64,000 nucleotides of DNA from Clostridia bacterium (GTDB lineage: Bacteria > Bacillota > Clostridia > Oscillospirales > CAG-272), in the NCBI GenBank assembly GCA_017453285.1, contig JAFTKL010000008.1, forward strand, positions 14,434 to 78,433, in the 5' to 3' direction. The translations under genes were made by a program, and so were the position numbers. Below the pieces are notes generated by a model that did not search any database, had not been told where the DNA came from, and saw nothing but the letters and a program-made list of their open reading frames with translations. Below, piece after piece: positions 18,175 through 45,965 of the stretch. The stretch's first letter is position 1; each line of letters opens with the position of its first letter.

Positions 18175-18335
18175 TATATCGAACCTGTAGGGACCGGCGT
18201 CCCCGACGGTCCTAAAACAAAAATATAGATATCTTTTATATCTGTTATCCTTGTTTTGATAATAGACAAATATGCAATTTGTAACCGATACGACATTGGA
18301 CCGCCGAGGACGTCGGTCCCTACAGGTTCGATATA
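18175..18335. mobile_element. 161-bp inverted-repeat element: a REP-doublet or MITE-like non-autonomous element
   Basis: The termini are tatatcgaacctgtagggaccggcgtccccgacggtcc (left) and ggaccgccgaggacgtcggtccctacaggttcgatata (right), about 38-bp imperfect inverted repeats. They enclose an 85-bp AT-rich core. Each end is GTAGGG plus a hairpin, with the GTAG ends facing outward. Confidence 0.75.
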
Positions 18336-18423
18336 GTTTTGTGTTTCGGCAGCAGACGGAAATTCGGCTCTCTACCAATTTTCAACTTTCCACTTTCAAT
18401 TTTCAATTTTTCTCTCTTATCCC

Positions 18424-18452
18424 TTGATATTTCACTTAAAATTTGATATAAT
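18424..18452 (+). promoter_or_regulatory. Sigma-A promoter of the ArsR-family regulator
   Basis: TTGATA (18424-18429), 17-nt spacer, TATAAT (18447-18452). The ATG is at 18483, after the RBS AAAGGAG. Confidence 0.6.
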
Positions 18453-18482
18453 ATATCCGATAACGTCAGAAAGGAGATAAAT

Positions 18483-18857
18483 ATGTCGATACATCTTCCG
18501 CACGACCACGGCAACGCCGAGCGCGAGGAGCTGCTCGCTTCTATGTGGAGCCGCGAGAGCTTCGAGACCGTCTCAAGCCTCTTCAAACAGCTCTCGGACA
18601 CAACACGCCTGCGCATTTTCTGGGTGCTCTGTCACTCCGAGGAGTGCGTTATAAATCTCGCCGCTATTATGAATATGAGCTCGCCCGCCGTGTCACATCA
18701 TCTCCGCCTTCTGAAAGAAGCAGGACTCGTCGTCACGCGCAGAGAGGAAAAAGAGGTCTACTACAAGGTCGCAGACACCGAAGAAGCCTCACTTTTGCAC
18801 TCTATGATCGAGCAGCTTGAGCATATAACCTGCCCCGATGAGAAAAAAAGCAACTAA
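18483..18857 (+). CDS. ArsR/SmtB-family metalloregulator (CadC-like)
   Basis: It shows the winged-HTH signature LSDTTRLRIFWVLCHSEECVINLAAIMNMSSPAVSHHLRLLKEAGLV. It is divergent from the ATPase operon. Confidence 0.88.
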   Translation: MSIHLPHDHGNAEREELLASMWSRESFETVSSLFKQLSDTTRLRIFWVLCHSEECVINLAAIMNMSSPAVSHHLRLLKEAGLVVTRREEKEVYYKVADTEEASLLHSMIEQLEHITCPDEKKSN

Positions 18858-18871
18858 TTTGCGAAAAGATC

Positions 18872-18900
18872 TTGATTTCACGCAAAGTTTATTATATAAT
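18872..18900 (+). promoter_or_regulatory. Sigma-A promoter of asnA
   Basis: TTGATT (18872-18877), 17-nt spacer, TATAAT (18895-18900). Confidence 0.6.
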
Positions 18901-18939
18901 TATATGGTTATTTCCGTTATTTGAAAGGACACTTTTACA

Positions 18940-19947
18940 ATGAACAAAACCTTCGTACCCGAGGGCTACCGTCCTCAGCTCGATGCCTACCAGACGCAGA
19001 GAGCGATCGAATACATCAAAAGAACTTTTCAGGCTGAGTTTTCCTCGGCCCTTCACCTAAAGAGAGTTACCGCTCCCCTATTCGTTGCCGAGAATTCCGG
19101 TCTTAACGACAACCTCTCGGGCAAGGAGCGCCCCGTATCCTTCGATATCCCCGCGATCGGTCTTGATGCGCAGGTCGTTCACTCGCTTGCAAAGTGGAAG
19201 AGACTCGCGCTCAAGAGATATAATTTCGGTGTCGGCGACGGACTTTATACCGATATGAACGCAATACGGCGCGACGAGTGGCTCGATAACGTGCATTCTA
19301 TATACGTTGACCAGTGGGACTGGGAAAAGATAATCACCCGCGAGACGAGAAATATGGATTATCTCAAGCTCATAGTCACCGCGATCGTTGAGGCTATCTG
19401 CAACACCAACGACCGCCTGCGCGTGCGCTTTCCTCAGCTCACGACCGAGCTTTGCCGCAAGGTCTCATTTATCACCACGCAGGAGCTTGAGGATCTCTAC
19501 CCCGACCTTTCGGGCAACGAGCGCGAGAACGCGTATCTGCGCGAGCACAAGACTGCGTTTATTATGCAGATCGGCGGTGCGCTCCGCTCAGGCAAGCCGC
19601 ACGACAACCGCGCGCCCGACTACGACGACTGGTCGCTCAACGGCGATATCTTCTTCTGGGACGACGTACTTGGAAGAGCGCTTGAGATCTCCTCAATGGG
19701 TATCCGCGTTGACGCACAGACGCTCGACCGCCAGCTCACGATAGCAGGCTGTGACGATCGCCGCGCGCTTCCCTTCCATCAGATGCTGCTCCACGACGAG
19801 CTTCCCCTCACCATCGGCGGCGGTATCGGTCAGTCGCGCCTTTGTATGCTTATGATGGGCTGCGCTCACATCGGTGAGGTACAGTCGAGCATCTGGGACA
19901 GCGAGACTATCCGCATCTGCGAGGAAAACGGTATACCGTTGCTTTGA
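18940..19947 (+). CDS. asnA: Aspartate-ammonia ligase (asparagine synthetase A)
   Basis: The 335-aa protein begins ..QTQRAIEYIKRTFQAEFSSALHLKRVTAPLFV and continues through ..SSMGIRVD, ending GGGIGQSRLCMLMMG. This is typical AsnA, a class-II aaRS-like fold. Confidence 0.9.
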   Translation: MNKTFVPEGYRPQLDAYQTQRAIEYIKRTFQAEFSSALHLKRVTAPLFVAENSGLNDNLSGKERPVSFDIPAIGLDAQVVHSLAKWKRLALKRYNFGVGDGLYTDMNAIRRDEWLDNVHSIYVDQWDWEKIITRETRNMDYLKLIVTAIVEAICNTNDRLRVRFPQLTTELCRKVSFITTQELEDLYPDLSGNERENAYLREHKTAFIMQIGGALRSGKPHDNRAPDYDDWSLNGDIFFWDDVLGRALEISSMGIRVDAQTLDRQLTIAGCDDRRALPFHQMLLHDELPLTIGGGIGQSRLCMLMMGCAHIGEVQSSIWDSETIRICEENGIPLL

Positions 19948-20103
19948 TGGCTTTATAAATAAGGAACGTTTACATTCCTTCTCATTAGGGTGACAACCAT
20001 TTTGCTGACGTGTGCACTCCTATTTGGATAACGTCTATACCACTAATAACTTTCGGCAGAGATATTGTTTTCTCTGCCGCTTTGTGTTACAATAAAATGG
20101 GTG

Positions 20104-20619
20104 ATGAAAATGGATGAATTGAAAAACCGAAAAACTACTCGATTAAAGGGCGCTGATTATAATCGAAACCAGGTCGTTTTTTTGACGATATGCACCAAGG
20201 AACGACGCTGTATTCTCTCTCGAATTGTAGGGACCGGCGTCCTCGACGGTCCAAAAATCGAATTAACAAAATACGGACAAATTGCAGACAAATACATCAA
20301 ACAATTAAGTAATTTTTATGATGACTTTTCTGTCGAAAGCTATGTGATCATGCCAAATCACATTCATATTATGCTGTGGGTAAAAGGTGCCATAAATGGA
20401 CCGTCGGGGACGCCGGTCCCTACAAAACAAAATTCTATTCCGGCACGGTTCGTGTCAACGTTCAAGAGATTTTGCAATAAAGAATATGGGGAAAATATGT
20501 GGCAATACCGTTCTAACGATCACATCATCCGAAACCGCGAAGACTATGAAGAGCATTTGCGGTATATTTACGAAAATCCGCTACGTTGGTACTACGACGA
20601 ACTATATAAAGAAGAATAA
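20104..20619 (+). CDS. IS200-like Y1 HUH transposase-family protein (REP-associated tyrosine transposase, RAYT-like)
   Basis: The HUH motif is in YVIMPNHIHIML. A C-terminal tyrosine motif is in LRYIYENPLRW. The size is about 171 aa. No IS ends or a partner tnpB gene are present. It carries two REP-like hairpins in frame (see the two repeat features below). Confidence 0.75.
   Translation: MKMDELKNRKTTRLKGADYNRNQVVFLTICTKERRCILSRIVGTGVLDGPKIELTKYGQIADKYIKQLSNFYDDFSVESYVIMPNHIHIMLWVKGAINGPSGTPVPTKQNSIPARFVSTFKRFCNKEYGENMWQYRSNDHIIRNREDYEEHLRYIYENPLRWYYDELYKEE
20227..20252 (+). repeat. GTAGGG-hairpin (REP-like) inside the RAYT-like CDS
   Basis: The sequence is gtagggaccggcgtcctcgacggtcc, which encodes VGTGVLDGP. 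Confidence 0.85.
20398..20423 (-). repeat. GTAGGG-hairpin (REP-like) inside the RAYT-like CDS, inverted
   Basis: The reverse complement is gtagggaccggcgtccccgacggtcc. This is identical 26/26 to the intergenic copy at 18187-18212. It encodes GPSGTPVPT. Confidence 0.85.
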
Positions 20620-20624
20620 CAACG

Positions 20625-20660
20625 ATCCCCGACAGGCACTAAATCTGTCGGGGATTTTAA
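20625..20660 (+). terminator. Intrinsic terminator after the RAYT-like gene
   Basis: A perfect 11-bp stem pairs atccccgacag with ctgtcggggat, followed by TTTAATT. Confidence 0.6.
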
Positions 20661-20754
20661 TTGTGTGTTAAAATATTTTATTTTCCAAAAATCCCTTGCT
20701 TTTTTGTAGAATAGTGCTATAATTACATTTAGTGACTTTTAGCGGAGGTGTGAT

Positions 20755-22122
20755 ATGGCTCGCATAAAGAACGTAGACGTGCTCGGTGGCAAGCTTTTTC
20801 CGTCGATATTGCGATTTGGAATTCCGTTGCTTCTGGTAGCGCTTATCCAGACGCTCTTCAACGCGGTGGATATTATGGTGCTCAGCCAAATGGCAAATAA
20901 CAATGCCGTCGCGTCGGTCGGAGCGACGTCCACGATAGTAAGCCTTATCGTCAATCTCTCGCTCGGTATCTCGATGGGCGCGAAGATCGTTCTTGCGCGA
21001 CTTATCGGCGAGGGTGTAAGAGAAAAAACTCAGCAGACCGTCTTTACCACCATCGTGACCGCGATAATTCTCGGAGTTATCACTATGGTCGTGGGAATTA
21101 CGATTGCGCCTCTCTTCCTCAGACTCACTAATTGCCCGTCCGAGATATACGACGGCGCGCTGCTCTATCTGCAGATTTACTTTGCCGCCGCCCCCGCAAT
21201 AATGCTCTACAACTTCGGCTCGAACCTCATAAGAGTCTCGGGCGACTCGCAAAGACCGCTATACTATATGGTGGCATCGGGTCTGCTCAACATCGTCCTT
21301 AACTATATCCTCTGCCTCATTATGACCGAGAAGGTCGCCGCGGTAGCTATCGCGACGGCGGCGTCACAAGTACTCGGCGCAGTGCTGGTGTTGCGCAGAA
21401 CTTTGGTTATGGACAACGATTGCCGCCTCTGCATCCGCAGCTCCAAGTGGAATTGGCGCTCTTTCTATAAAATTATGGCAAACGGACTTCCGATCGGCTT
21501 CAGCTCCTCGCTCTACTCGATCGCCAATCTGCAGATACAGACCGCTCTCAACTCCTTCGGTCCCGATGCGATCGCAGGAAACGCGGCGGCGGTCAATATC
21601 GAGGCGATAACGGGCTCGATAGCCAACACGCCCTGGACCGCGACGGCAAGCGTATTTATCGGTCAGAACGTGGGCGCAGACAACAAGAAGCGCGTCAAGC
21701 AGTCTATACTTCTCTGCGGCGCGATCGCGCTCTCGCTCTCGCTCATCATCGGTGCGGTAACGATATTCTTCTCAGCACCTCTCCTCTCGCTTTTCGTTGA
21801 TACCGAAGCCGCAGTGCGCTACGGTCAGACAAGAATGCTCTACATAGTCATCCCCTACGTCATAGCCGCATTCAACGGACTTCTCGGCAACGCAATTCAG
21901 GCGTTCGGGTACTCAATATTCTCCACGCTCAACTCGATCTTCTCGGTCTTTGTTTTCCGTATGATCTGGATGAACAATATCTATCCGCTCTGCCCGACCT
22001 TCCACGTGCTGATGCAGTGCTTCCTGGTCTCCTGGATGATAACCGCGGTATTGAATACAGTATTCTTCTTCTATCTCTACTACGGAAAATTCAAAAAGAA
22101 TAAGATCAAGAAAATGGGATAA
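20755..22122 (+). CDS. MATE-family multidrug/toxin efflux transporter
   Basis: The 455-aa polytopic membrane protein begins with the typical MATE pattern ..KLFPSILRFGIPLLLVALIQTLFNAVDIMVLS and shows 12-TM-like periodicity. Confidence 0.85.
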   Translation: MARIKNVDVLGGKLFPSILRFGIPLLLVALIQTLFNAVDIMVLSQMANNNAVASVGATSTIVSLIVNLSLGISMGAKIVLARLIGEGVREKTQQTVFTTIVTAIILGVITMVVGITIAPLFLRLTNCPSEIYDGALLYLQIYFAAAPAIMLYNFGSNLIRVSGDSQRPLYYMVASGLLNIVLNYILCLIMTEKVAAVAIATAASQVLGAVLVLRRTLVMDNDCRLCIRSSKWNWRSFYKIMANGLPIGFSSSLYSIANLQIQTALNSFGPDAIAGNAAAVNIEAITGSIANTPWTATASVFIGQNVGADNKKRVKQSILLCGAIALSLSLIIGAVTIFFSAPLLSLFVDTEAAVRYGQTRMLYIVIPYVIAAFNGLLGNAIQAFGYSIFSTLNSIFSVFVFRMIWMNNIYPLCPTFHVLMQCFLVSWMITAVLNTVFFFYLYYGKFKKNKIKKMG

Positions 22123-22196
22123 GCAGGCGGAAAACAACATTATACCACAAAATAATCTTAAAATATACTCATATTAAGATTTTTTGGAGATTTTTT

Positions 22197-22388
22197 ATGA
22201 GAAACAAAAATAACAAACATCTCGGAATAGAGATTGATCCTGAATTACACTACAAACTGCACTATATTTCAAAATACTACGGTCGCTCGGCGAATGGCGA
22301 GATCCTTTATCTGATACGTCAGGAGATCAAAGCATTCGAAAAGGTCGAGGGAGAAATTGAGATTCCCAAAGAGACAAAAGACAATTAA
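22197..22388 (+). CDS. Small Arc/ribbon-helix-helix-like DNA-binding protein (tentative)
   Basis: The 63-aa protein reads LGIEIDPELHYKLHYISKYYGRSANGEILYLIRQEI, which fits a beta-strand/helix/helix pattern. A stem-loop terminator follows at about 22404-22437. Confidence 0.45.
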   Translation: MRNKNNKHLGIEIDPELHYKLHYISKYYGRSANGEILYLIRQEIKAFEKVEGEIEIPKETKDN

Positions 22389-22448
22389 ACTGTTATCATA
22401 AGCAAAAAGCACTTGCCAAATTTCGCAAGTGCTTTTGTAATTTTGATG

Positions 22449-23978
22449 TCAAAGAGTTATTTCGTTTTCTCCCGCCGCGATCTTATACTCCTTGCCGTCG
22501 ATCACGAGGGTATAGGGTGCGCTCGAGGTGACTGTGCATTTCTTACCGTCCGAGAGAATGTCGGTCTTGACGTCACCGAAGCGCAAGCCCTTTATTCCGA
22601 CCTTTCCCCAACTCTCATGCGGGTGCGACCATTCGACTCTGCGCTCAAATGCGTTCACGGTATGGAAGCCAAGCACGCACTCAATATAGATCGAGATCGG
22701 TCCGAGCGCAGACCAGCCGCAGAAATTCGGACGACACTTGTGATCGTGCGTTTCGGCAGATGCAGGCTCTGGCTTCGTGGGCGAATAGCACTCCCAGATG
22801 GTGTGAGGCTCGTAATCGGTGTAGGTCTTGTACATATGCTCGAGTATCTTCACGCCCGCGCGGTGTGCAACGTCGTAAAAGCCGTAGCGCACAAGTCCGC
22901 AGAGCGACGCGTAAGCGGTGGGCATCCAGAGCGAGCCGCGCCAATAAAGTCCGTCGCTCTCAAAGTCGTTATCCGAGCGAGAGAGCGAAAGCAGGGGCAC
23001 GTCGCCTCCCATAGTCTCGGGCTCGTCGACGCGAAGTGCGAGCTTCTCAGCCTGCTCACCCGACGCAACGCCCGAGGTCAATGCCCAATAGGACGCGGTG
23101 GTCATTACCTTGTAAAAGGAGTGGTCTCTGCGGTCGACGTCGTAGTAAAATCCGTCCTCTTCGTCCCAATAGACGCTGTTGATTATATCCTTCTTTTCGT
23201 CGTACCTCGCGCGCCAGAGCTCTGCATTCTCAGCGTCGCCGACAAGTGCGAACATCTCGCTGATTATATCCGCCGAGAGCGCCTGCTGGCAGATCGCGTC
23301 GATCCAGAGCATTTCGGGGTTGTTCGGTCTCTGCCCCTGCGCGTGCTCGGTCGTTCTTCCTCTCGGGGTGTTGTCCATTCCCGAGCATCCGCCCTCCCAT
23401 CTGTAGCCGTATTTCTCGGCGGTAAGGCAAGTGGGTAGCAGAACGTTCGGCAGCTTGACCGACTCGCGAAGGCTCTCTATCCATTCGTAGTGCTTTTGCA
23501 AAACGCCCTTATCATACAGCAGCTCGCGTAGATATTCGACGTCTCCGCGAACGAGCGCGTTTACGTACTCCGCCCACGCGAAAAGCGGCGGATTGTCGGC
23601 AAGATGGACCTTTATATTATACGGCACACCGGGAGTCGCGCCCGTCCAAAAGGGCTCGTTCTCGGGCGGTATGACCTCGGGCAGAGGCTTGCCGCCGTAG
23701 AGTGCCTCGTAGAAATTATTCAGAGTCTCGACTCCCGGAAAAACGTCCTGCGCGTATTTGCAGAAAAGCGTCATAAAGCAGGTATCCCAGATCCAGACCT
23801 GCGTGTCGCAGAACGCCTCGTCCATATAGGGAGTCTGCGGCATTCCGGGGATGTCCTTTATATGCGCAAAAGCAAGCTCCCACGCCTTTTTGTAGAATTC
23901 GTAATATTCGGGGTGCGCCTCGCACACGGGTGTCGGGATGTAGCTCTCCCAATACGCACAGCCAAATCTTTTTTCCAT
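22449..23978 (-). CDS. (alpha/alpha)6-barrel glycoside hydrolase, GH63/trehalase-like (tentative family)
   Basis: The 509-aa cytoplasmic protein shows the motif ..CDTQVWIWDTCFMTLFCKY.. and W/Y-rich acidic segments resembling MGH1/GH63-type enzymes. No search was run. Confidence 0.55.
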   Translation of the reverse strand: MEKRFGCAYWESYIPTPVCEAHPEYYEFYKKAWELAFAHIKDIPGMPQTPYMDEAFCDTQVWIWDTCFMTLFCKYAQDVFPGVETLNNFYEALYGGKPLPEVIPPENEPFWTGATPGVPYNIKVHLADNPPLFAWAEYVNALVRGDVEYLRELLYDKGVLQKHYEWIESLRESVKLPNVLLPTCLTAEKYGYRWEGGCSGMDNTPRGRTTEHAQGQRPNNPEMLWIDAICQQALSADIISEMFALVGDAENAELWRARYDEKKDIINSVYWDEEDGFYYDVDRRDHSFYKVMTTASYWALTSGVASGEQAEKLALRVDEPETMGGDVPLLSLSRSDNDFESDGLYWRGSLWMPTAYASLCGLVRYGFYDVAHRAGVKILEHMYKTYTDYEPHTIWECYSPTKPEPASAETHDHKCRPNFCGWSALGPISIYIECVLGFHTVNAFERRVEWSHPHESWGKVGIKGLRFGDVKTDILSDGKKCTVTSSAPYTLVIDGKEYKIAAGENEITL

Positions 23979-24118
23979 AGCATTTCTCCTTTGAGTCTTG
24001 TAAGAAAATTATAGCATTTTTCTCACGCTTTGTCAACAGAGAAACATTGAGTTTAGCTTTTAACCCAAAAAGGCTGCTTCACTTAGATGCAAAAGTCTCT
24101 AAATGAAGCAGCCCTCTT

Positions 24119-26142: not shown

Positions 26143-26301
26143 AACTAAAAATCCTTTCTTCATTAAATTATTGCTTTTATGATTTGAATTTACAAAAAAT
26201 TAATTTATTTACTTTGTATTTATTATAGCATTTTCTTGAGCGATATGCTATAATAAATATACTGAAAAGTATCAGAAATCTCATCCGGAGGAGCTTTTAA
26301 A

Positions 26302-27192: not shown

Positions 27193-27201
27193 TATTTATT
27201 T

Positions 27202-32195: not shown

Positions 32196-32287
32196 GGAGA
32201 GATGGCTGAGCTGGTCTAAGGCGCACGACTGGAAATCGTGTGAACGCTAATACCGTTCCGTGAGTTCGAATCTCACTCTCTCCGCCA
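32196..32287 (+). tRNA. tRNA-Ser (anticodon GGA), with encoded CCA
   Basis: The acceptor stem pairs GGAGAGA with TCTCTCC. The anticodon stem pairs CACGA with TCGTG, and the loop CTGGAAA gives anticodon GGA. It has a long variable arm, a GTTCGAATC T-loop, discriminator G and CCA. Confidence 0.92.
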
Positions 32288-32292
32288 CAAAA

Positions 32293-32327
32293 AATAAGAG
32301 GACTGCGTTGCAGTCCTCTTATTTTTT
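32293..32327 (+). terminator. Intrinsic terminator after tRNA-Ser
   Basis: A perfect 14-bp stem pairs aataagaggactgc with gcagtcctcttatt around a 3-nt loop, followed by a T-run. Confidence 0.8.
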
Positions 32328-32345
32328 GTGCCAGAGAGTACTAAT

Positions 32346-32380
32346 GCGAACTCACACTTGCGAAGCAAGTGTGAGTTCGC
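32346..32380. repeat. Perfect 16-bp-stem hairpin
   Basis: The sequence is gcgaactcacacttgc-gaa-gcaagtgtgagttcgc. A degenerate second copy of its right half lies at 32494-32524. Confidence 0.85.
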
Positions 32381-32415
32381 ATTTGAGCCTTAAGCCGACG
32401 GGAGCTCGCTCACGG
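32351..32415 (+). repeat. Direct repeat unit 1 (~65 bp)
   Basis: The unit ctcacacttgcgaagcaaNNgtgagttcgcatttgagcc..aagccg..gagctcgctca recurs 143 bp downstream. Confidence 0.75.
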
Positions 32416-32493: not shown

Positions 32494-32560
32494 CTCACAC
32501 TTGCGAAGCAAAAAGTGAGTTCGCATTTGAGCCGAAAGCCGTCTGTGAGCTCGCTCAGGA
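32494..32560 (+). repeat. Direct repeat unit 2 (~65 bp)
   Basis: See unit 1. This copy is diverged. Confidence 0.75.
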
Positions 32561-32596: not shown

Positions 32597-32620
32597 GGGC
32601 GCTTCGTGAAGCGCCCCTAC
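32597..32620 (-). repeat. GTAGGG-hairpin (REP-like), stem class GGGCGCTT
   Basis: The plus strand reads gggcgcttcgtgaagcgcccctac. The minus strand reads GTAG-GGGCGCTT-cacg-AAGCGCCC. Confidence 0.75.
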
Positions 32621-32679: not shown

Positions 32680-32700
32680 GTAGGGACCGTGCGTCCCTAC
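32680..32700. repeat. GTAGGGAC palindromic hairpin (REP-like)
   Basis: The sequence is gtagggac-cgtgc-gtccctac. Its flank aggtttgatata matches the flank aggttcgatata at 18324-18335. Confidence 0.75.
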
Positions 32701-32760
32701 AGGTTTGATATAATTTTCTTGTATCGGAGACAGACGGATGTACGGCGGTGACCGATATTT

Positions 32761-32787
32761 CGGGCGAACTGTGTTCGCCCGTTGTAC
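32761..32787 (-). repeat. REP-like hairpin, stem class GGGCGAAC
   Basis: The minus strand reads gtacaacGGGCGAACacaGTTCGCCCg. It is the same element as 45937-45961 (GGGCGACCacaGGTCGCCC), with a compensatory A:T versus C:G stem pair. Confidence 0.7.
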
Positions 32788-36417: not shown

Positions 36418-36603
36418 TTACTTGCTCTCAACGTTGAGAACTTCCTTACCGTCATAGTAACCGCAAGCCTTGCAAACACGGTGGCTTCTTACGTATTCAC
36501 CGCACTTGGGGCACTTGGTCATGCCGGGGAGCACGAGCTTCCAATTGTTAGAACGTCTCTTGTCTCTGCGAGCCTTTGATACTTTTCTCTTCGGTACTGC
36601 CAT
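36418..36603 (-). CDS. rpmF: 50S ribosomal protein L32
   Basis: The protein is [23 protein letters not shown]...[20 protein letters not shown], with the RBS AAGGAGG. Confidence 0.95.
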
Positions 36604-36660
36604 AGTTACACCTCCTTGAAGCGTGTAAAACACGACTTTCAATTTATATTAAAAATTTTT

Positions 36661-37179: not shown

Positions 37180-37397
37180 ATTTTCCTCCGTTGCGATCTT
37201 GGTTTTTAGCACACATTTTTTCTTGACATAAAATGCGACAATACATATTATAATTCATTTTCCTTCAGTTGTCAAGAGTTTTTTTAAATATTCTTTGCAA
37301 ATAAAATATTTTTGCCGATATTTATAAAAATTCTTTACTTTTTTTGCTCTCTATGATAAAATTGTATTAAAGTAAACTTGGTTTTGTGAGGCTTATT

Positions 37398-38285: not shown

Positions 38286-38295
38286 CGGAGGCAGT

Positions 38296-39654: not shown

Positions 39655-39683
39655 AATATTCTGAAAATAATAAATTATCCTCA

Positions 39684-39710
39684 AAAAGCACCGCGAAAGC
39701 GGTGCTTTTT
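39684..39710 (+). terminator. Intrinsic terminator
   Basis: The sequence is aaaagcaccgc-gaaa-gcggtgctttt followed by T. Confidence 0.8.
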
Positions 39711-39861
39711 GGTTATAGGCGGAGGTGCATTTTGTGACCGTAACGACCTCGGACGACCACATGGCAAGCCTGCAAGTTTTCTTCGAAAACATTGTGGTCG
39801 CCCCTACAATCATAGATATATGCCGTTTATTTGCTCAACAGACAAAGGCATCTATCTCTGC

Positions 39862-40209
39862 CTTCACAATTAAAATGAAAAAGAAACACGCGGTGGGTTG
39901 TCCGTCCGCGTGTTTCTACATCGCTTTTGTATTAAATTACAAATCGGGGATGTCGCTTTGGTTTACAATATCCCAAATCACCTTAGGGAATATCGGTGTG
40001 ATTTACGAATGCCCCCTACACCAACACCCGCAGGAAGTTCTTTTGATTTTCAAGTCGGCGCGTCCTGCGGACGATGAAGCCGACTTGAAAATAGGAAAAA
40101 ACAAGGAGTATTGGGCACGCGCTACGCGTTCGTGCTCAAGACGACTATGTTTTTGACCGAATTCTTTTCTTTCAAGAAAAGAACAGAAAAAACTCACTTC
40201 AAGCTAACT
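39862..40209 (-). repeat. Structured intergenic module, copy A (carries a ~115-bp internal insertion)
   Basis: It aligns to 46025-46250, apart from an extra hairpin-rich segment at 40049-40163. On the minus strand it begins at the stop codon of the metallophosphoesterase gene. It ends in a 12-bp-stem hairpin (39882-39917) followed by a T-run. Confidence 0.8.
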
Positions 40210-41032: not shown

Positions 41033-42165
41033 CAGTCAATTCTCCATTTCGTGTAAAGTATCGACGTGCGCAGATCGTCGCCGTAAGGCTGATAGTAAAC
41101 TGTTACGAGCGATCCGTCGGCAAGCTCTGTCGTCGCAGGATAGCCGAGGTCGCCGTTGCGAGCGTCAGAGAGGATGAATTCCTCGCTGAAGGTGCGACAG
41201 CCGTCATAGCTGACTACCGCGCGAATGCCGAAGGGCGCACTTCTTCTGCCGTAGGTGACGAGTATCGAGCCGTCCTTGCGCAGAAGCAGGTGCGGAGGCG
41301 AGCCGATCTTGCCGAGGCTCCAAAGCTCGCTCCAGGTCTTTCCTCCGTCCTTGGACGAGGTGAAATATACTCCGAAATGATCGTATGCGGGATCGTCGTG
41401 CGCGCGGATCGCGACTATGATCTCACCGTCGGGAGTCTCAACGAGGTGAGGCTCGCAGAGATCCTTGTTTGCCGCGCCGTTCTTGCCGGGGAGCTTGGAT
41501 ACGTACTCCCAGCTCTCGCCGCCGTCAAAGCTCTCGTAAAGGAAGAGAGCCTCTCTGTCCTCTACAGGTGTCGTATCGGCAGAGTCGTCAAAATCATTGC
41601 TGTATCTGTTGGGAAGTCCGGGGAATTCGCGACCGACGTAGAGAAGTCTGCCGCTGACCGTCTTGACAGGTCCGTGTGGTGCGGAAACGACGGTCTTTAT
41701 GGGGTCTCCCCAGGTCTTGCCGTAGTCGTTCGAAATTCTGATAAACGAACCCGCTCTGTCCTGCTCGGGAGTATAGGTCTTGTAAGCCTCAAGGAAGCCC
41801 TCAAGCAGCGGCTTGAACTCGTCCTCAGCGTCGCCTACTATCCAATTTCTCCATATACCTTGATATATTACTGCAGGGTGATTGAACCAGGAGACGATCA
41901 TTCGTCCGTTGCCAAGATAAGTAAGTCCTGCATCTCTGTCGTCAAGCCAGGTGTCGTTGATGATGCTCGGCACGCTCCAGGTCTCGCCGCCGTCGGTCGA
42001 CGTGAACATCAGATCCTTACCAAACGTGCAAACGTGAGACGAGCGGTGTCCCGAGCAAGCGGCGTAGAGCACGCCGTTCTCGTCCTGAGTCACGGTCGGC
42101 CACGCCTGATAGCGAAACGGTCCCTCGTTTACTCTGTATACAATTCCCTTTTTGATTATCTTCAT
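41032..42165 (-). CDS. BNR/Asp-box six-bladed propeller protein (sialidase-fold, GH33-like), leaderless
   Basis: It has four Asp-boxes: STDGGETW, SNDYGKTW, SFDGGESW and SKDGGKTW. Its stop overlaps the start of the downstream phosphoesterase (TGATG). Confidence 0.75.
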   Translation of the reverse strand: MKIIKKGIVYRVNEGPFRYQAWPTVTQDENGVLYAACSGHRSSHVCTFGKDLMFTSTDGGETWSVPSIINDTWLDDRDAGLTYLGNGRMIVSWFNHPAVIYQGIWRNWIVGDAEDEFKPLLEGFLEAYKTYTPEQDRAGSFIRISNDYGKTWGDPIKTVVSAPHGPVKTVSGRLLYVGREFPGLPNRYSNDFDDSADTTPVEDREALFLYESFDGGESWEYVSKLPGKNGAANKDLCEPHLVETPDGEIIVAIRAHDDPAYDHFGVYFTSSKDGGKTWSELWSLGKIGSPPHLLLRKDGSILVTYGRRSAPFGIRAVVSYDGCRTFSEEFILSDARNGDLGYPATTELADGSLVTVYYQPYGDDLRTSILYTKWRID

Positions 42166-42284
42166 AGTCTTTACCTCCTTTTCGGTAAGCTTGCTGATGC
42201 CATTTTAACATACGCACCGCCAAATGTCAATACGAAAACAAGATAATTTTATATAAATAATAAAGTAAAAAAACACTATGACTC

Positions 42285-42313
42285 TTGACATTTGCCAAAA
42301 GATGTGATATACT
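42285..42313 (+). promoter_or_regulatory. Sigma-A promoter of ileS
   Basis: TTGACA (42285-42290), 17-nt spacer, TATACT (42308-42313). It lies about 55 nt before the ATG at 42369. Confidence 0.65.
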
Positions 42314-42368
42314 GTATTATCTATTAAAATGTGAAAGTATGTCAAAAACAGAAAGGACAGAAAACGAT

Positions 42369-45300
42369 ATGCAGGATAAATTTGAAACAAAGTATCCCTT
42401 TGTGGAAAATGAAAAGGAAGTCCTCGGCTTCTGGAAGGAAAACGATTGCTTCCAGAAACTCAAGGCAAAGAACGCAAACGGCCCGAAGTACCGCTTCATC
42501 GACGGTCCTATCACGGCTAACAACCCCATGGGTATACATCACACCTGGGGACGTACCCTCAAGGACACCTTCATCAAGTACAACGCTATGAAGGGTCGCG
42601 ACACCCACTACCGCAACGGCTTTGACTCTCAGGGTCTTTGGGTCGAGGTAGAGGTCGAAAAGGAGCTTGGCTTTAAGACCAAGCACGATATCGAGGCTTA
42701 CGGTCTTGATAAGTTTACCGAAAAGTGCATCGAGCGTGTAAAGAAGTTCTCGGGCGTTATCACTGAGCAGTCGATAAGACTCGGTCAGTGGATGGACTGG
42801 GATAACTCCTACTACACCTACACCGATGAAAATATTCAGGGCATCTGGACCTTCCTCAAGAAGTGCCACGAGGGCGGATGGATCCGTCAGGTCTATAAGC
42901 CTATGCCTTGGTGCTCGCGTTGCGGAACCTCGCTCTCCGAGCACGAAATGACAGGTTCTTATAAGGAGATCGAGCACGAGGCTGTATTCTTCAAGCTTCC
43001 CATCAAGGACACGAACGACTACATTCTCGTATGGACCACAACTCCCTGGACTCTCTCTGCTAACGTAGCTCTCGCGGTAAACCCCGAGATGACCTACGTA
43101 AGACTGCACGTTGCAGGTGAGGAGAACAACTACGTTACCTCGCTCAACTACTACAAACAGAAGTTCGAGAACAAAGAGGGCGTTGAGCTTCTCGCAACTA
43201 TGAAGGGTACTGACCTCGCAGGACTTGAGTACGAGACTTGCTTCCCCGAGATCGACGAGCAGAACTTTGCTCACAAGATCGTCCTCTGGGACGAGGTTGC
43301 CGACGACGAGGGATGCGGAGTCGTTCACATCGCTCCCGGATGCGGTGCCGAGGACTTTGCTCTCGGTGAGTCTATCGGTCTTCCCAAGATCATCCCCGTT
43401 GACGAGTACGGTATTTTCTATAACGGCTTCTCCTTCCTCTCCGGACTTGATGCGCAGGATTGCCGTCAGCTCGTATTCGACGAGCTCAAGAAGAGAAATA
43501 AGCTCTTCTACACACATAAGTATAAGCACAGCTACCCTGTCTGCTGGAGATGTAAGAAGGAGATCATCTTCCGTCTCGGCAAGGAATGGGCTATCGCTGT
43601 TGACGAGCTTCGCCCCCGCCTTATCGCTAACGCAAATAAGGTTCGTTGGGAACCCGCATATCAGGGCAAGAGAATGCTCGACTGGCTTGAGAATATGTCC
43701 GACTGGAATATCTCGCGTAAGAGATTTTACGGTCTTCCCCTTCCCTTCTATCTCTGCGACTGCGGCGAGCTGACCGTCGTTGGCTCCAAGGACGAGCTCT
43801 ACGAGCTTGCTGTCGACAAGTCCAAGGTAGACGCTATCCCCCATCTCCACCGTCCGTGGATCGACGACGTTCAGATCTGCTGCCCCAAGTGTAAAGCGGC
43901 AGTACAGAGAGTAACTCAGGTCGGCGACGTTTGGCTTGACGCGGGTATCGTTCCCTTCTCGACTCTCAAGTACCTTACCGATAAGGAATATTGGAAGCAG
44001 TACTTCCCTGCTGAGCACGTTCTCGAGATGAAGGAGCAGATCAGACTCTGGTTCTACTCTATGCTCTTTATGAGTACCGTTCTCGTTGACGAGCCTCCCT
44101 ATGAGAGAGTAAGCACACACGGTATGGTAGTTTCCGAGGACGGAAGCCGCTTCTCCAAGACCGGATTTATGATCCGCTTCGACGAGGCTGCTGACATCAT
44201 CGGTGCTGACGCATCGCGTTACATCTTTGCTTCCTCCTCGACCTCGACCGACGTACGCTTCGGCTTCAACCTCGGTGAAGAGGCAAGAAGAAAGCTCCTC
44301 GCTTTCTGGAACCTCGAGACATTCTTCGCAACCTACGCTGATATCGACGATACCAAGGTCGATCTCTCGAAGCTCGATCCCGCAAAGCTCTGCCCGATCG
44401 ACCGCTGGTTGCTCATCCGCACAAATAAGTTCATCAAGGAGACCAACGTTTATATGGCGGATTACTCCACCCGTGACGTCGTTACCCTCTTTGAGAGCTT
44501 TGTAAACGATATCTCCAACTTCTACATCCGTGTAAACCGCGGCCGCTTCTGGTCGACCGAGAACAGCGAGGATAAGCAGAACGCATATGCAGTTCTCTTC
44601 TACGCTATCAAGGCGATCACAGGAATTATGGCTCCCATTATTCCCTTTATGACCGAGTACACCTGGCAGAAGTTCATCAAGAGATACTCTGACGAAGAGA
44701 CTCTCTCGGTATTCCTCTCGGATTACCCCGAGGTAGATCCCGCGCTTGATATTTCCGACGACCGCATCCTTGCAGACGTTGAGTGCGCAAGAGAGATGAT
44801 CTCTCTCGGCCTCAAGCTCCGTAACGAGAAGCAGATCAAGATCCGCCAGCCTCTCTCGACTATGTACGTAAGTGCTACCGAGCAGAACGCAAACGCGATC
44901 GAGACCTTTGGCTCTGTTATTATGAGCGAGATGAATATCAACGCGATCGAACAGCTTGCTGATACCTCTGCGCTTGAGTCCAACTTCCTCACCGTTAACT
45001 TCAAGGTTGCAGGACGCGTTCTCAAGAACCGCGCAAACGAGGTCAAGGCATTCCTCGGCGAGCTTGACGCGGCACGTCAGCAGGAGCTTTCGAACGCAGT
45101 CAAGGCAGGACAGAACGTTTCTCTTCCCGAGCTTGAGCTCGAGGTAGAGCCCGACGTATTTACGCTGAACTCCAAACCTCTTGACAACGTGGCTATCTAC
45201 TCGAATAACGGCGAGTTCGTAGCACTTGATACCACCATCTCCGACGAGCTCGCAAGAGCAGGAATACTTCGTGATATCGTTCGTCAGTGTCAGGTATTCC

Positions 45301-45506
45301 GTAAGGCTGCAGGCTTTGACGTAAGCGACCGCATCTATATCGCGTTTGCGACCGAGTCCGAGCTTATCAAGAGCATTATCGCCGAAAAGCAGGCTCAGCT
45401 CGAGTCCGACCTTCTCGCGACATTCGAAGCTCCCGCAAATGTTGAGTACACAGGCACGATCGACCTCGACGGAACGGTCATCACCGTTTCGCTCCAGAGA
45501 AAGTGA
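42369..45506 (+). CDS. ileS: Isoleucyl-tRNA synthetase, long (about 1045 aa) type-2-like form
   Basis: It shows a HIGH-type motif (PMGIHHTWG) and a KMSKS-type motif (RFSKTG). It also has zinc-knuckle cysteines (CSRCGT, CWRCKK, CPKCKA). The start was chosen at MQDKFETKYPF. Confidence 0.92.
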   Translation: MQDKFETKYPFVENEKEVLGFWKENDCFQKLKAKNANGPKYRFIDGPITANNPMGIHHTWGRTLKDTFIKYNAMKGRDTHYRNGFDSQGLWVEVEVEKELGFKTKHDIEAYGLDKFTEKCIERVKKFSGVITEQSIRLGQWMDWDNSYYTYTDENIQGIWTFLKKCHEGGWIRQVYKPMPWCSRCGTSLSEHEMTGSYKEIEHEAVFFKLPIKDTNDYILVWTTTPWTLSANVALAVNPEMTYVRLHVAGEENNYVTSLNYYKQKFENKEGVELLATMKGTDLAGLEYETCFPEIDEQNFAHKIVLWDEVADDEGCGVVHIAPGCGAEDFALGESIGLPKIIPVDEYGIFYNGFSFLSGLDAQDCRQLVFDELKKRNKLFYTHKYKHSYPVCWRCKKEIIFRLGKEWAIAVDELRPRLIANANKVRWEPAYQGKRMLDWLENMSDWNISRKRFYGLPLPFYLCDCGELTVVGSKDELYELAVDKSKVDAIPHLHRPWIDDVQICCPKCKAAVQRVTQVGDVWLDAGIVPFSTLKYLTDKEYWKQYFPAEHVLEMKEQIRLWFYSMLFMSTVLVDEPPYERVSTHGMVVSEDGSRFSKTGFMIRFDEAADIIGADASRYIFASSSTSTDVRFGFNLGEEARRKLLAFWNLETFFATYADIDDTKVDLSKLDPAKLCPIDRWLLIRTNKFIKETNVYMADYSTRDVVTLFESFVNDISNFYIRVNRGRFWSTENSEDKQNAYAVLFYAIKAITGIMAPIIPFMTEYTWQKFIKRYSDEETLSVFLSDYPEVDPALDISDDRILADVECAREMISLGLKLRNEKQIKIRQPLSTMYVSATEQNANAIETFGSVIMSEMNINAIEQLADTSALESNFLTVNFKVAGRVLKNRANEVKAFLGELDAARQQELSNAVKAGQNVSLPELELEVEPDVFTLNSKPLDNVAIYSNNGEFVALDTTISDELARAGILRDIVRQCQVFRKAAGFDVSDRIYIAFATESELIKSIIAEKQAQLESDLLATFEAPANVEYTGTIDLDGTVITVSLQRK

Positions 45507-45526
45507 TCGTCAAATTTAAATTTAAA

Positions 45527-45565
45527 ATCACCTATGACGCGGCGCGTCATAGGTGATTTTTGTTT
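45527..45565 (+). terminator. Intrinsic terminator of ileS
   Basis: A perfect 14-bp stem pairs atcacctatgacgc with gcgtcataggtgat around a 3-nt loop, followed by TTTTGTTTT. Confidence 0.85.
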
Positions 45566-45606
45566 TGGGTGCAGACGGATGTTCATTTTGTGACCGAGGT
45601 GACCTC

Positions 45607-45629
45607 GGGAGGATAATATCCTCCCCTAC
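45607..45629 (-). repeat. GTAGGG-hairpin (REP-like), stem class GGGAGGAT
   Basis: The plus strand reads gggaggat-aat-atcctccc-ctac. Confidence 0.8.
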
Positions 45630-45682
45630 AATCCTGTTATTCATTTTTCATTATTCATCATTCGTTATTCATTTTTACATTT

Positions 45683-45705
45683 GTAGGGGAGGCTATTAGC
45701 CTCCC
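45683..45705 (+). repeat. GTAGGG-hairpin (REP-like), stem class GGGAGGCT
   Basis: The sequence is gtag-gggaggct-att-agcctccc. It differs from the 45607 copy by a compensatory stem pair. Confidence 0.8.
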
Positions 45706-45768
45706 GAAAAAAGCAGGATGAATGATATGTTTTCGTATGCAACCAAAATAACAAAATCCCCCCAAAGC

Positions 45769-45830
45769 CTTCACAATAAAAAATAGAAACCCGTGGTAGC
45801 CTGCTGTCCGCGTGTTTCTTTAATTTTAGA
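45769..45830 (-). repeat. Structured intergenic module, partial copy C (terminator-hairpin end only)
   Basis: The sequence is cttcacaataaaaaatagaaacccgtgg..ccgcgtgtttct. It matches the 5' ends (plus-strand sense) of copies A and B. Confidence 0.65.
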
Positions 45831-45886
45831 TTATAAAAGCCTTTGCTTTGGCTAAATGTCAAACGTGTATATTTTTTATCTTGTTC

Positions 45887-45909
45887 GTAGGGGCGACCTG
45901 CGGTCGCCC
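45887..45909 (+). repeat. GTAGGG-hairpin (REP-like), stem class GGGCGACC
   Basis: The sequence is gtag-gggcgacc-tgc-ggtcgccc. Confidence 0.8.
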
Positions 45910-45942
45910 GCCTTGAAATAAAAGTTACTTTTGTAGTACAAC

Positions 45943-45965
45943 GGGCGACCACAGGTCGCCCCTAC
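45943..45965 (-). repeat. GTAGGG-hairpin (REP-like), stem class GGGCGACC, inverted partner
   Basis: The sequence is gggcgacc-aca-ggtcgccc-ctac. With the 45887 copy it forms a 79-bp doublet with outward-facing GTAG ends. Confidence 0.8.

Follow-up and report, generated by a model that had tools for sequence, protein, structure and literature searches.

GTAGGG hairpins in a Clostridia contig as probable GTAG-type REPs, and an in-frame hairpin pair within a RAYT/TnpA_REP-like gene

Overview

The GTAGGG hairpins dispersed through the window, the whole 64-kb stretch of DNA analysed here, are very probably GTAG-type REPs that serve as substrates of RAYT/TnpA_REP-family enzymes, with each stem class cognate to one RAYT lineage. 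This reading draws on the hairpins themselves, their enrichment and covariation, the match between class and protein clade, and the motifs and predicted fold of the protein. The REPs are arranged as singles, REPIN-like inverted doublets, a collapsed double-foot form and mosaic BIME-like clusters. Less ordinary is the enzyme gene, where the active-site motif lies between two in-frame copies of the gene's own hairpin.

By analogy with the TnpA_REP proteins of E. coli, Stenotrophomonas and Marinomonas, we infer binding, cleavage and mobilisation. In single-stranded DNA, the hairpin would form on the strand with the 5' GTAG, where a Y1 HUH enzyme of the RAYT/TnpA_REP family would bind it and cut and rejoin nearby, and this activity would seed intergenic DNA with hairpin copies. 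The 20104-20619 product is probably one of these enzymes, from a large, mostly Oscillospirales branch resembling tnpA_REP subclass 2.4; its gene holds its own REP class twice, inverted and in frame, in two surface loops around the HUH motif. Each stem class would be the cognate substrate of a separate RAYT lineage, and RAYT paralogues in other parts of the genome probably account for the remaining window classes.

Hairpin copies in the window

Strict sites were defined as GTAGG plus a hairpin with at least 7 Watson-Crick pairs and at most one mismatch. The window contained nine, compared with 0.24 ± 0.48 (maximum 2) expected from 200 first-order Markov nulls. Beyond these, the window holds one copy without GTAG, one double-foot palindrome and one copy with an expanded loop (Table 1). 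Bare GTAGGG gave 24 matches vs 12.6 ± 3.2, and a loose definition allowing G.T pairs was non-discriminating (27 vs 12.8). Across 1.1 Mb of flanks of 80 related genes, REP-hairpin density was 0.133 per kb.

Table 1 Hairpins, flank modules and the RAYT-like gene in the window.
Feature	Position	Strand or orientation	Details
REPIN-like inverted doublet, GGACCG class	18170..18340	GTAG ends outward	2 REPs
REP, GGACCG class	18187-18212	+	6-bp stem, G.A mismatch, 2 bp more (DNA folding)
REP, GGACCG class	18298-18323	-	sequence reading and DNA folding
RAYT/TnpA_REP-like Y1 HUH gene	20104..20619	+	171 aa; HUH = NHIH, Tyr motif = RYIYENP
Intragenic REP site 1, GTAGGGACCGGCGTCCTCGACGGTCC	20227..20252	+	in frame, encodes VGTGVLDGP
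Intragenic REP site 2, inverted copy	20398..20423	-	in frame, encodes GPSGTPVPT
REP, class GGGCGCTT (GTAGGGGCGCTTCACGAAGCGCCC)	32597-32620	-	sequence reading and DNA folding
Double-foot REP, GTAGGGAC-cgtgc-GTCCCTAC	32680-32700	palindrome	-8.5 kcal/mol, z = -4.1
GTAG-less REP copy, class GGGCGAAC	32761-32781	+	-11.4 kcal/mol, z = -5.9
23-nt flank module CATTTTGTGACCG...	39728-39750		beside loop-expanded REP
Loop-expanded REP and flank	39728..39807	-	GTAG at 39804-39807
REP and flank modules CAGACGGATGT, CATTTTGTGACCG	45572..45629	-	REP at 45607-45629
REP, class GGGAGGAT	45607-45629	-	sequence reading and DNA folding
REP, class GGGAGGCT	45683-45705	+	sequence reading and DNA folding
REP, class GGGCGACC	45887-45909	+	sequence reading and DNA folding
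REP, class GGGCGACC	45943-45965	-	sequence reading and DNA folding

All 11 copies listed by an earlier sequence-only reading were real hairpins on reading and DNA folding, with one strand corrected: the 32761 copy (ATTTCGGGCGAACTGTGTTCGCCCGTTGTAC), previously placed on the minus strand, lines up with the GTAG-bearing strand of 45965(-) (GTAGGGGCGACCTGTGGTCGCCCGTTGTAC) and is therefore in + orientation, its leader lost. The GTAGGG leader, described as invariant, is thus present in 10 of the 11 copies. What had been taken for a half-site at 39796-39807 is instead a loop-expanded REP, in which a structured 31-nt loop sits on an 11-bp GGGCGACCACA stem with one G.T pair (39752-39804, minus strand; -14.9 kcal/mol, z = -4.1).

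Several copies form doublets. The arms of the 18187/18323 doublet are 43 nt long, 91% complementary and separated by 85 AT-rich nt, and fold separately, each with the stem given for 18187-18212 in Table 1, at -9.6 and -9.9 kcal/mol. Stems of this GGACCG class, intragenic copies included (18187, 18298-18323, 20227 and 20398-20423), have an internal G.A or A.G mismatch. The copies at 45607-45629 and 45683-45705 make up a GTAG-inward doublet with 27-nt arms (93% complementary), and the two GGGCGACC REPs a REPIN (45887..45965) with 39-nt arms (79% complementary) that folds in DNA as a single long hairpin (-32.1 kcal/mol, z = -7.8). In the double-foot palindrome at 32680-32700 the stem includes GTAG, and its 3' flank AGGTTYGATATARTTTT is shared with 18324-18340. 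Double-foot REPs were described by Quentin et al. (2018), and the same product occurs within a related RAYT gene (L083); the copy here was probably left behind by an inverted doublet that collapsed.

The shared fragments said to accompany the hairpins do so, every copy adjoining one. CAGACGGATGT has two exact copies, at 32731 (32731-32741, 5' of the GTAG-less REP) and 45572, and CATTTTGTGACCG has two, at 39728 and 45584, plus a third at 18275 with two mismatches. The intergenic copies are mostly found downstream of genes, as had been proposed, and the 32.6-kb cluster follows a tRNA gene (32196-32284), but the 18187/18323 doublet sits between divergently transcribed genes.

A RAYT gene with an in-frame hairpin pair

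The ORF at 20104-20619 is, judging from profile matches and a structural model, a divergent RAYT/TnpA_REP. Its protein matched NCBIfam REP_Tyr_transpos (E = 1e-13) at 51 bits, under the curated cut-off of 80, and a Pfam search gave no match, Y1_Tnp included. The family profile of the ORF matched E. coli TnpA_REP 4ER8 (E = 4e-13), and IS200/IS605 TnpAs only at 1e-4 or weaker. With the AF2 model (pLDDT 86), the best PDB match in Foldseek was 4ER8_A (E = 1.8e-7, TM 0.60). The proposed link to a Y1 HUH enzyme is thus supported by the HUH and Tyr motifs and by 4ER8 ranking top with both the family profile and the AlphaFold model.

In the window gene, site 2 differs from site 1 in the loop alone. 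The AF2 model places the site 1 peptide in the beta-hairpin loop between beta1 and alphaA, and the site 2 peptide in a low-confidence loop after the HUH strand. Among 83 related genes, mostly from Oscillospirales, 67 carry one gene-specific class twice in the ORF, inverted, in frame and bracketing HUH, and the GTA of site 1 is a Val codon in all 67. Quentin et al. (2018) reported in-frame REP insertions in tnpA_REP subclass 2.4; we found no description there of a conserved inverted pair or its co-variation, nor of HUH-deleted alleles or inverted-junction contigs. Both kinds of allele occur in public contigs: the HUH segment is deleted on an 83.8-kb contig, and three contigs contain inverted junctions, the hairpin-bracketed segment being apparently flipped. 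Such a flip would introduce stop codons in 65 of the 67 genes. The intragenic pair makes the RAYT gene deletion-prone, yet it is kept.

Selection on hairpin structure

Between site 1 and site 2 of the same gene, the 67 genes showed 14 compensatory stem changes, no single stem-breaking change, and 35 changes in loops or unpaired positions. Two alignments of gene-internal sites were 92% and 100% paired, compared with 71% and 74% in shuffles. They scored 0.55 and 0.71 for covariation, where shuffles gave 0.14 and 0.19 and slid controls no more than 0.17; the input to this test, as to the Mantel test below, was related sequences, with hairpin geometry groups picked by three closing pairs. The two compensatory pairs noticed earlier in the window, GGGAGGAT/ATCCTCCC vs GGGAGGCT/AGCCTCCC and GGGCGACC/GGTCGCCC vs GGGCGAAC/GTTCGCCC, are real. 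Selection on hairpin structure, as the sequence-only reading suggested, is therefore strongly supported, although arm-to-arm templated repair could also produce paired changes in a DNA palindrome. Its corollary that sequence is not under selection was too strong, since class sequence is near-identical across species and the GTAG and two closing G-C pairs are constant.

Non-Watson-Crick positions, read on the GTAG strand, comprised 24 G.A/A.G, 13 G.T/T.G and no A.C/C.A. The GTAG strand is the structured strand, and this spectrum fits the strand-specific recognition of the REP but not its complement (Corneloup 2021).

Stem classes and their probable cognate enzymes

Across related genes, stem class tracks protein clade: with hairpin-coded residues masked, protein distance correlated with hairpin distance among these related sequences (Mantel r = 0.316, p ≤ 0.001, permutation maximum 0.129). 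At 18 of 36 loci, an out-of-gene copy lay within two mismatches of the gene's own hairpin, compared with 1.8 expected (maximum 7). The 64-kb window contains a single RAYT gene, and three of the four stem classes have no cognate gene there. These other classes are the internal pairs of RAYT lineages L044, L054 and L049: the 32597-32620 REP has exactly the sequence that both internal hairpins have in the L049 gene, the 32761-32781 stem equals site 1 of the L054 gene, and the AT/CT variant pair of the 45607/45683 doublet recurs in the L044 gene as its sites 1 and 2. Two paralogues with different classes also occur in one genome or locus (L001+L018, L013, L030). Since the extra window classes are the internal classes of other RAYT lineages, these sequence comparisons favour multiple cognate enzymes over relaxed specificity.

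Alternative explanations

Relaxed specificity would mean that the 20104-20619 enzyme alone serves all classes, reading GTAG and a generic G+C-rich hairpin. Such an enzyme would suit the constancy of GTAG and the two closing G-C pairs in all classes, the occurrence of flank module CATTTTGTGACCG with different classes, the single RAYT gene in 64 kb and the reported flexibility of Marinomonas TnpA_REP. However, we consider it improbable, because hairpin class follows protein clade, both internal copies of each gene stay in one class, different-class paralogues coexist, and hairpins close to a gene fit its own class ten times as often as expected. Similarly unlikely is that the hairpins act chiefly at the RNA level, for instance as stabilisers of mRNA 3' ends or as terminators, and are kept for host expression, with a historical RAYT link. 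The majority of intergenic copies are downstream of genes, G.T pairs are tolerated, and many REPs are transcribed, as argued by Di Nocera (2013). Yet no T-run follows the hairpins, and upstream of the 45572..45629 region a terminator-like hairpin of IleS (45524-45560) comes first. Copies also point either with or against transcription, a doublet separates two divergent genes, an Rfam search gave no family match, and intragenic G.T/G.A mismatches fall on the GTAG strand, which is mRNA-like at site 1 and template at site 2.

The intragenic copies could also be passive, tolerated REP insertions in permissive loops that are insertion hot spots, with no function of their own. Both peptides lie in low-confidence surface loops, some family members lack intragenic copies (P0146, P0158, P0169, P0214), and in more distant members the hairpins flank the gene or only one is internal (L050, L066, L069, L072). 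Slippage-like tandem in-frame expansions point the same way, as does the reading that Quentin et al. (2018) gave to subclass 2.4 insertions. We regard this as a real possibility but lean against it, as the positions, the frame (67/67 at site 1) and the inverted orientation are kept over more than 50% protein divergence and more than 20 classes, and the pair persists despite the deletion-proneness it confers.

Comparison with known systems

GTAG-type REPs, BIMEs and REPINs with RAYT/TnpA_REP are well described (Nunvar 2010; Bertels & Rainey 2011; Ton-Hoang 2012; Di Nocera 2013; Corneloup 2021). The window hairpins resemble them in having a 5' GTAG foot before a G+C-rich palindrome (19-22 nt), in being intergenic with inverted doublets that fold as one long hairpin, in forming several families per genome, and in their tie to a Y1 HUH gene of TnpA_REP fold with its own REP class. 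In stem form, the window class whose mismatch is conserved recalls E. coli group 2, and the remaining, perfectly palindromic classes recall group 3. The studied systems come from proteobacteria, this one from an uncultured lineage of gut Clostridia; also unlike those systems, the window gene is not REP-flanked, its cognate pair lies inside the ORF, and its protein falls under the curated NCBIfam cut-off.

The window gene also resembles a subclass, tnpA_REP 2.4, that Quentin et al. (2018) defined on a sample of chiefly Cyanobacteria and Bacteroidetes and that equals group 4 of the RAYTs in Bertels et al. (2017). Shared features are the NH[IFV]H and WQ motifs, a YIxxNP-like Tyr motif, three G-C pairs at the REP foot, double-foot REPs, in-frame REPs in the beta3/alphaC loop of the gene, and short repeats that vary loop length. 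In contrast to subclass 2.4, a second same-class copy precedes HUH (beta1-alphaA), always inverted to the first, and both copies co-vary with protein clade.

IS200/IS605 elements (IS608, ISDra2) have the Y1 HUH fold and ssDNA hairpins with a 5' guide tetranucleotide, but they match more weakly than 4ER8 (E about 1e-4 vs 4e-13; TM 0.39-0.48 vs 0.60). Their ends are one-strand hairpins flanking the whole gene, and they form multi-copy units, often with tnpB, neither arrangement being seen here. An ORF segment set between inverted repeats, with stop codons added by its flip, also characterises premature-stop intragenic invertons (Chanin et al., bioRxiv 2023.03.11.532203), and for the RAYT genes studied here there are contigs with apparently flipped junctions. 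Unlike in those invertons, the inverted repeats of the RAYT gene are the gene product's own presumed substrate.

The RAYT gene and its family

The RAYT gene of the window encodes a TnpA_REP-like Y1 HUH protein of 171 aa with the motifs MPNHIHIM (HUH) and LRYIYENP (Tyr), and residues H83, H85, Y151, I152, and N155 were invariant across 44 diverse family members. The protein matched NCBIfam NF047646 (REP_Tyr_transpos) with E = 1e-13 and 51.4 bits, under the cut-off of 80. No Pfam-A match was found for it at E ≤ 1, and a few shorter relatives had a precomputed match to PF01797. A profile of the 44 diverse relatives matched the E. coli TnpA_REP 4ER8 at E = 4e-13 and IS200/IS605 transposases at 1.7e-4 or weaker. 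Foldseek searches with the AlphaFold (AF2) model of the window protein (pLDDT 86, pTM 0.81) ranked 4ER8_A at the top for the predicted structure (E = 1.8e-7, TM 0.60), followed by ISDra2, IS608, and IS200. The system is of a known kind, REP/RAYT. Its family comprised 13,700 cluster representatives (50% identity, E ≤ 0.001). The genome loci retrieved belonged chiefly to Oscillospirales MAGs from animal guts, with a few from Synergistaceae and Chloroflexota; among isolates, Gemmiger formicilis DFI.6.10 (L030) and Ruminococcus flavefaciens SAb67 (L045) have family members. No record of the exact window protein was found, and the best genome locus was 83% identical. In the window, the nearest REPs (GTAGGG-hairpin units) outside the gene were 1.8 kb away.

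Directly upstream of the gene is a conserved palindrome, CGGCAGAGA-N10-TCTCTGCCG, and behind it comes an extended -10-like motif, TGTTATAAT, which reads TGTTACAAT in the window. Equivalents were found at three related loci (L082, 1447-1495; L083, 1451-1497; L084, 1451-1495), and the palindrome was kept in four relatives despite otherwise diverged flanks. The palindrome could serve as an operator or as a regulatory hairpin at the 5' end.

An inverted hairpin pair inside the gene

The hairpin pair inside the RAYT-like gene turns out to be the rule among related genes. When the 260 nt preceding the HUH codons were aligned against the reverse-complemented 260 nt that follow, an inverted GTAGGG-hairpin pair around the HUH was found in 67 of 83 related genes. 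The upstream member (site 1) lay at a median of 114 nt before the HUH, and its GTA was a Val codon in all 67 genes; the downstream member (site 2) ended ~76 nt past the HUH and was read in a single frame in 60 of the 67. In the AF2 model, the peptide encoded by site 1 forms a beta-hairpin loop located between beta1 and alphaA, and site 2 falls in a low-confidence loop following the HUH strand. Stems fell into more than 20 sequence classes among the genes, and site 1 and site 2 of one gene were always of the same class. The encoded peptides varied widely and were reverse-complement translations of each other (e.g., VGGDVLDAP/GASRTSPPT and VGADAHIGP/GPMWASAPT), which argues that the constraint acts on the nucleic acid rather than on the peptide.

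The length variation among homologues was located exactly at sites 1 and 2, as in-frame tandem 27-nt units. Site 1 of protein P0013 (L081, 660-790) contained an in-frame tandem array of the 27-nt ACCGGCGTCCTCGACGGTCCGCCTTCG, with four full units, a partial fifth, and five hairpin cores. In-frame arrays were seen in many other proteins too, and comparable arrays at site 2 occurred in proteins of 167-226 aa. Neighbouring units of these arrays can pair mutually, which would favour slippage. In more distant members (L050, L066, L069, and L072), the hairpins flanked the gene, or site 2 alone was inside, arrangements that would fit a stepwise movement of REPs into the ORF.

Comparison of the two sites within each of the 67 genes showed 14 compensatory double changes, no single stem-breaking change, and 35 changes in loop or unpaired positions; the sites were identical in 19 genes. 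For the alignments, sites were chosen by position and not by folding. Pairing reached 92% (26-nt geometry) and 100% (23-nt geometry), compared with 71% and 74% in shuffled alignments. Covariation scores were 0.55 and 0.71, against 0.14 and 0.19 after shuffling and at most 0.17 in slid controls.

In the long class, one stem position was non-Watson-Crick in 28 of 47 sequences, which is consistent with a conserved mismatch and brings to mind the bulge that is essential in REPs of E. coli. Over all geometries, the commonest non-Watson-Crick pair was G.A (21 of 47 mismatched positions). Read on the GTAG strand, the non-Watson-Crick positions were G.A/A.G in 24 cases, G.T/T.G in 13, and A.C/C.A in none; the sequences counted are phylogenetically non-independent, and a mismatch shared by both sites would follow from inverted copying alone. 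Mismatches of G.T or G.A, never A.C, indicate that the structured strand is the one carrying GTAG, both at site 1, where it is the coding strand, and at site 2, where it is the template. They are also indirect evidence for a putative strand-specific binding, cleavage, and rejoining of REP ssDNA.

Hairpins across the window

The GTAG-GG-stem-loop-stem units claimed by the sequence-only reading could be read at their positions in the window (see table), and all listed copies folded as predicted stem-loops in single-stranded DNA, with minimum free energies of -7.7 to -14.9 kcal/mol and z-scores of -2.7 to -5.9. Under a strict definition, in which GTAGG is followed by a stem of 7 or more Watson-Crick pairs and no more than one mismatch, nine sites were found against 0.24 ± 0.48 expected from 200 first-order Markov nulls, whose maximum was 2. 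Bare GTAGGG occurred 24 times against 12.6 expected, only a twofold enrichment. A loose definition that admitted G.T pairs and any GTAG gave 27 against 12.8 and was abandoned for the strict one as non-discriminating; the size of the enrichment thus depends on the hairpin definition chosen. Hairpins occurred at about 0.14-0.17 per kb across the 64-kb window; for related loci, totalling 1.1 Mb, the density was 0.133 per kb.

Features of the window (REP, GTAGGG-hairpin unit)
Feature	Position (strand)	Remark
Inverted doublet	18170-18340	
REP	18187 (+)	
REP	18298-18323 (-)	
Upstream palindrome	20054-20100	
RAYT gene	20104-20619 (+)	
REP, site 1	20227-20252 (+)	
REP, site 2	20398-20423 (-)	
tRNA gene	32196-32284	89 nt
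Palindrome	32278-32338	29-nt arms
Palindrome	32343-32383	perfect, 19-nt arms
Direct repeat	32494-32541	repeats the post-tRNA palindrome region, 143-144 nt downstream
REP	32597-32620 (-)	
REP, double-foot	32680-32700	GTAG paired with CTAC
REP	32761 (+)	leader replaced
Short ORF across REP	39709-39873 (+)	
Long-loop hairpin	39752-39804 (-)	
~170-nt module	39870-40040 (-)	
Short ORF across REP	45528-45644 (-)	
Inverted doublet	45605-45707	
REP	45607-45629 (-)	
Short ORF across REP	45658-45774 (-)	
REP	45683 (+)	
~170-nt module, partial	45780-45819	
Short ORF across REP	45876-46004 (-)	
Single hairpin	45883-45969	-32 kcal/mol
Inverted doublet	45887-45965	
REP	45887 (+)	
REP	45943-45965 (-)	
~170-nt module	46030-46200 (-)	

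Some details of the sequence-only reading were revised. The leader had been called invariant; GTAG was present in 10 of the 11 window copies and at all 134 gene-internal sites of related genes, and was absent from the copy at 32761. This copy is a + strand unit with a replaced leader (ATTTC-GGGCGAAC...), judging by its 3' flank, GTTGTAC, which is shared with the copy ending at 45965 (-). The supposed half-site at 39796-39807 was actually part of a complete 11-bp stem enclosing a 31-nt structured loop upon DNA folding. The unit at 32680 was a "double-foot" palindrome, in which GTAG itself lies inside the stem. The copies were intergenic except for the two within the RAYT gene, as stated, and the location given as mostly downstream of convergent or terminal genes does not apply to the doublet at 18.2 kb, which lies between divergent genes. 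From translations inspected by eye (region 15967-19947), this doublet appears to lie within a promoter region shared by a metal-ATPase and chaperone pair (-) and an ArsR-like regulator (+). A tRNA gene precedes the 32.6-kb cluster.

The stem classes in the window were the RAYT gene's own class (with a G.A mismatch), GGGAGG, GGGCGAC, and GGGCGCTT. The shared fragments described beside the hairpins do exist and adjoin hairpins of different classes. A derivation of these flank modules from RAYT coding or 5' sequence was set aside: CATTTTGTGACCG and CAGACGGATGT resemble the stretch coding for YFVTVCT in L044, and the match is short and rearranged. The doublet at 45887-45965 folds into a single hairpin and is REPIN-like; spacers of same-class doublets were unrelated when the window was compared with L007, which gives no sign of movement as a unit. 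The idea that doublets derive from the gene by internal deletion, keeping a conserved spacer, was discarded, as no alignment was obtained among the spacer of the window doublet, that of the 137-bp same-class doublet of L007, and the gene segment. Sub-threshold Rfam matches of the REPIN-like hairpin to miRNA precursors were attributed to chance, arising from the long hairpin. Short spurious ORFs ran across REPs, giving for example the peptides IVGEDIILP, LIASPT, and VGATCGRP, and annotations of these genomes probably list ORFs of this kind as hypothetical proteins.

Two further repeat families were noticed. A ~170-nt module occurs downstream of two different - strand genes and ends with a terminator-like hairpin, AGAAACACGCGG...CCGCGTGTTTC, plus a T-run; it contains 2 of the 24 GTAGGG matches, without a hairpin. 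Rfam gave no match for this module in the copies at 46 kb and 45.8 kb (e-value scan) or window-wide at gathering thresholds, and at threshold only the tRNA passed in the window. The palindromes and direct repeat following the tRNA gene make up a repeat family of their own, adjacent to the REP cluster.

Several cognate enzymes or relaxed specificity

Several stem classes in one window had been explained by either multiple cognate enzymes or the relaxed specificity of one. With hairpin-coded residues masked before protein distances were calculated, protein and hairpin distances were correlated (Mantel r = 0.316; maximum of 999 permutations, 0.129). Classes were always shared by proteins less than 20% divergent and in 2% of pairs more than 50% divergent. 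Classes in the window recurred as the internal pairs of other lineages: GGGAGGAT/GGGAGGCT at sites 1 and 2 of L044, GGGCGAAC/GGGCGACC at sites 1 and 2 of L054, and GTAGGGGCGCTTCACGAAGCGCCC at both sites of L049. Paralogues of different classes occurred together in one genome or locus (L001 with L018, L013, and L030). Among 149 further GTAGGG hairpins in 1.1 Mb around 80 genes, a copy of the gene's own class was present outside the gene at 18 of 36 loci, against 1.8 expected. With the internal pairs of 67 of 83 genes, these copies show RAYT genes physically linked to their own REP class, as in a REPtron. Taken together, the class-clade correlation, the internal pairs of other lineages, the coexisting paralogues, and the own-class outside copies favour several cognate enzymes over relaxed specificity, as judged from the genes of relatives and this window. 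The sequence-only reading was essentially right, and its interpretation is sharpened here to several cognate enzymes.

Rearranged alleles

Because each REP is itself palindromic, the inverted pair is also a direct repeat of stem arms. We sought rearranged alleles in a protein collection using the ORFs predicted for a flipped segment and recovered six deletion alleles (P0290, P0295, P0308, P0314, P0316, and P0319); P0436 was an in-frame deletion. In L083, a contig of 83.8 kb, the N-terminal part is joined to the C-terminal half via a perfect double-foot, GTAGGGACCGGCG-TCCT-CGCCGGTCCCTAC, and the HUH segment is absent. The double-foot in the window probably arose through a deletion of this type. 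Truncated gene fragments breaking exactly at site 1 or site 2 were also observed (P0289, P0329, and L085 990-1070), fused either with a REP from a different class or with another copy's 5' leader, so that intragenic REPs behave as general rearrangement breakpoints. At first sight a flipped allele, P0390 (L085) was rejected, as this gene remnant lacks its 5' part and begins at site 2, beside a REP of a different class.

Flipped junctions were found in three contigs from three assemblies (ERZ27318269, ERZ27227529, and GCA_016852305.1), representing three sequence variants and each with an end in the segment or no more than 4 nt from it. In L082, upstream sequence leads into a reverse-complemented site-2 array, then the entire segment in reverse, the complement of site 1, and 4 nt; in L084, upstream sequence leads into site 1 and then the HUH region in reverse; and L086 consists of the reversed segment, a site-2 array, and the normal C-terminal half. 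Contig ends at the segment are expected of a mixed-orientation population in an assembly graph and are also where artefacts arise, and L082 may be a fold-back assembly artefact. Its last 4 nt are aata, compared with aacg in the reverse complement of its own upstream flank, and aata fits a real downstream variant (PT-IQNS, as in P0039), although four bases are not decisive. We refer to the three junctions as possible inversions. Flipping brings stop codons in 65 of the 67 genes, and an alternative protein encoded by the flipped segment was rejected on this count.

Significance

Three things make this variant interesting: the cognate hairpins, fixed in frame to either side of the catalytic motif, their paired evolution, and the deletions and possible inversions of the catalytic segment. 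The internal pair may have a function of its own, as a switch, fuse, or linkage device, or may merely be tolerated. It is conceivable, though we think it rather improbable, that the in-frame inverted pair is a functional self-targeting module, in which recombination would flip the catalytic segment (OFF by premature stop) or delete it and leave a double-foot REP. Such a module would be a built-in, possibly enzyme-driven switch or self-limiting fuse, and would keep the enzyme welded to its recognition site. If flipped and deleted alleles are real and recurrent, they would illustrate how a domesticated transposase could be switched off by its own substrate.

To our knowledge, nearly all work on REP/RAYT systems concerns Proteobacteria. 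The family described here is very large, is seen mainly in uncultured gut and rumen Oscillospirales, and carries two recognition hairpins of its own in each enzyme gene, so that the gene sequence suffices to match a REP class with its enzyme and no whole genome is needed. The hairpins also explain many spurious small ORFs (VGATCGRP-like peptides) and flag assembly breakpoints at RAYT genes, and the internal pair offers a natural experiment in overlapping constraints on DNA hairpin, reading frame, and protein loop.

Comparison with known systems

In IS200/IS605 elements, hairpins at the ends lie on the same strand and flank tnpA, with or without tnpB, in a multi-copy unit, whereas here they are inverted and internal; PDB similarity to these elements was also weaker than to 4ER8. 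No tnpB was found beside the RAYT gene, whose neighbours appeared AsnA-like and MATE transporter-like in translations inspected by eye. An intragenic inverton shows both orientations in one population, and the segment here may be one: flipped junctions were seen in the L082, L084, and L086 contigs, each from a different assembly.

The existing literature covers GTAG REPs, REPINs, BIMEs, and RAYTs well. Intragenic REPs as such are not new, since in-frame REP insertions that keep the frame have been reported, generally between HuH and Y, in the variable beta3/alphaC loop with short repeats, along with "double-foot" REPs (Quentin et al. 2018). In that study and the literature searched, we found no upstream second site forming a conserved inverted pair around the HUH, no co-variation of two sites with the protein clade, and no rearranged (HUH-deleted or flipped) alleles. 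The window protein loosely fits the signatures of tnpA_REP subclass 2.4 (Quentin et al. 2018): it has NHIH and WQ, its Tyr motif reads YIYENP where the subclass has YIxNNP, the beta3/alphaC loop holds site 2, and a double-foot REP occurs in the window.
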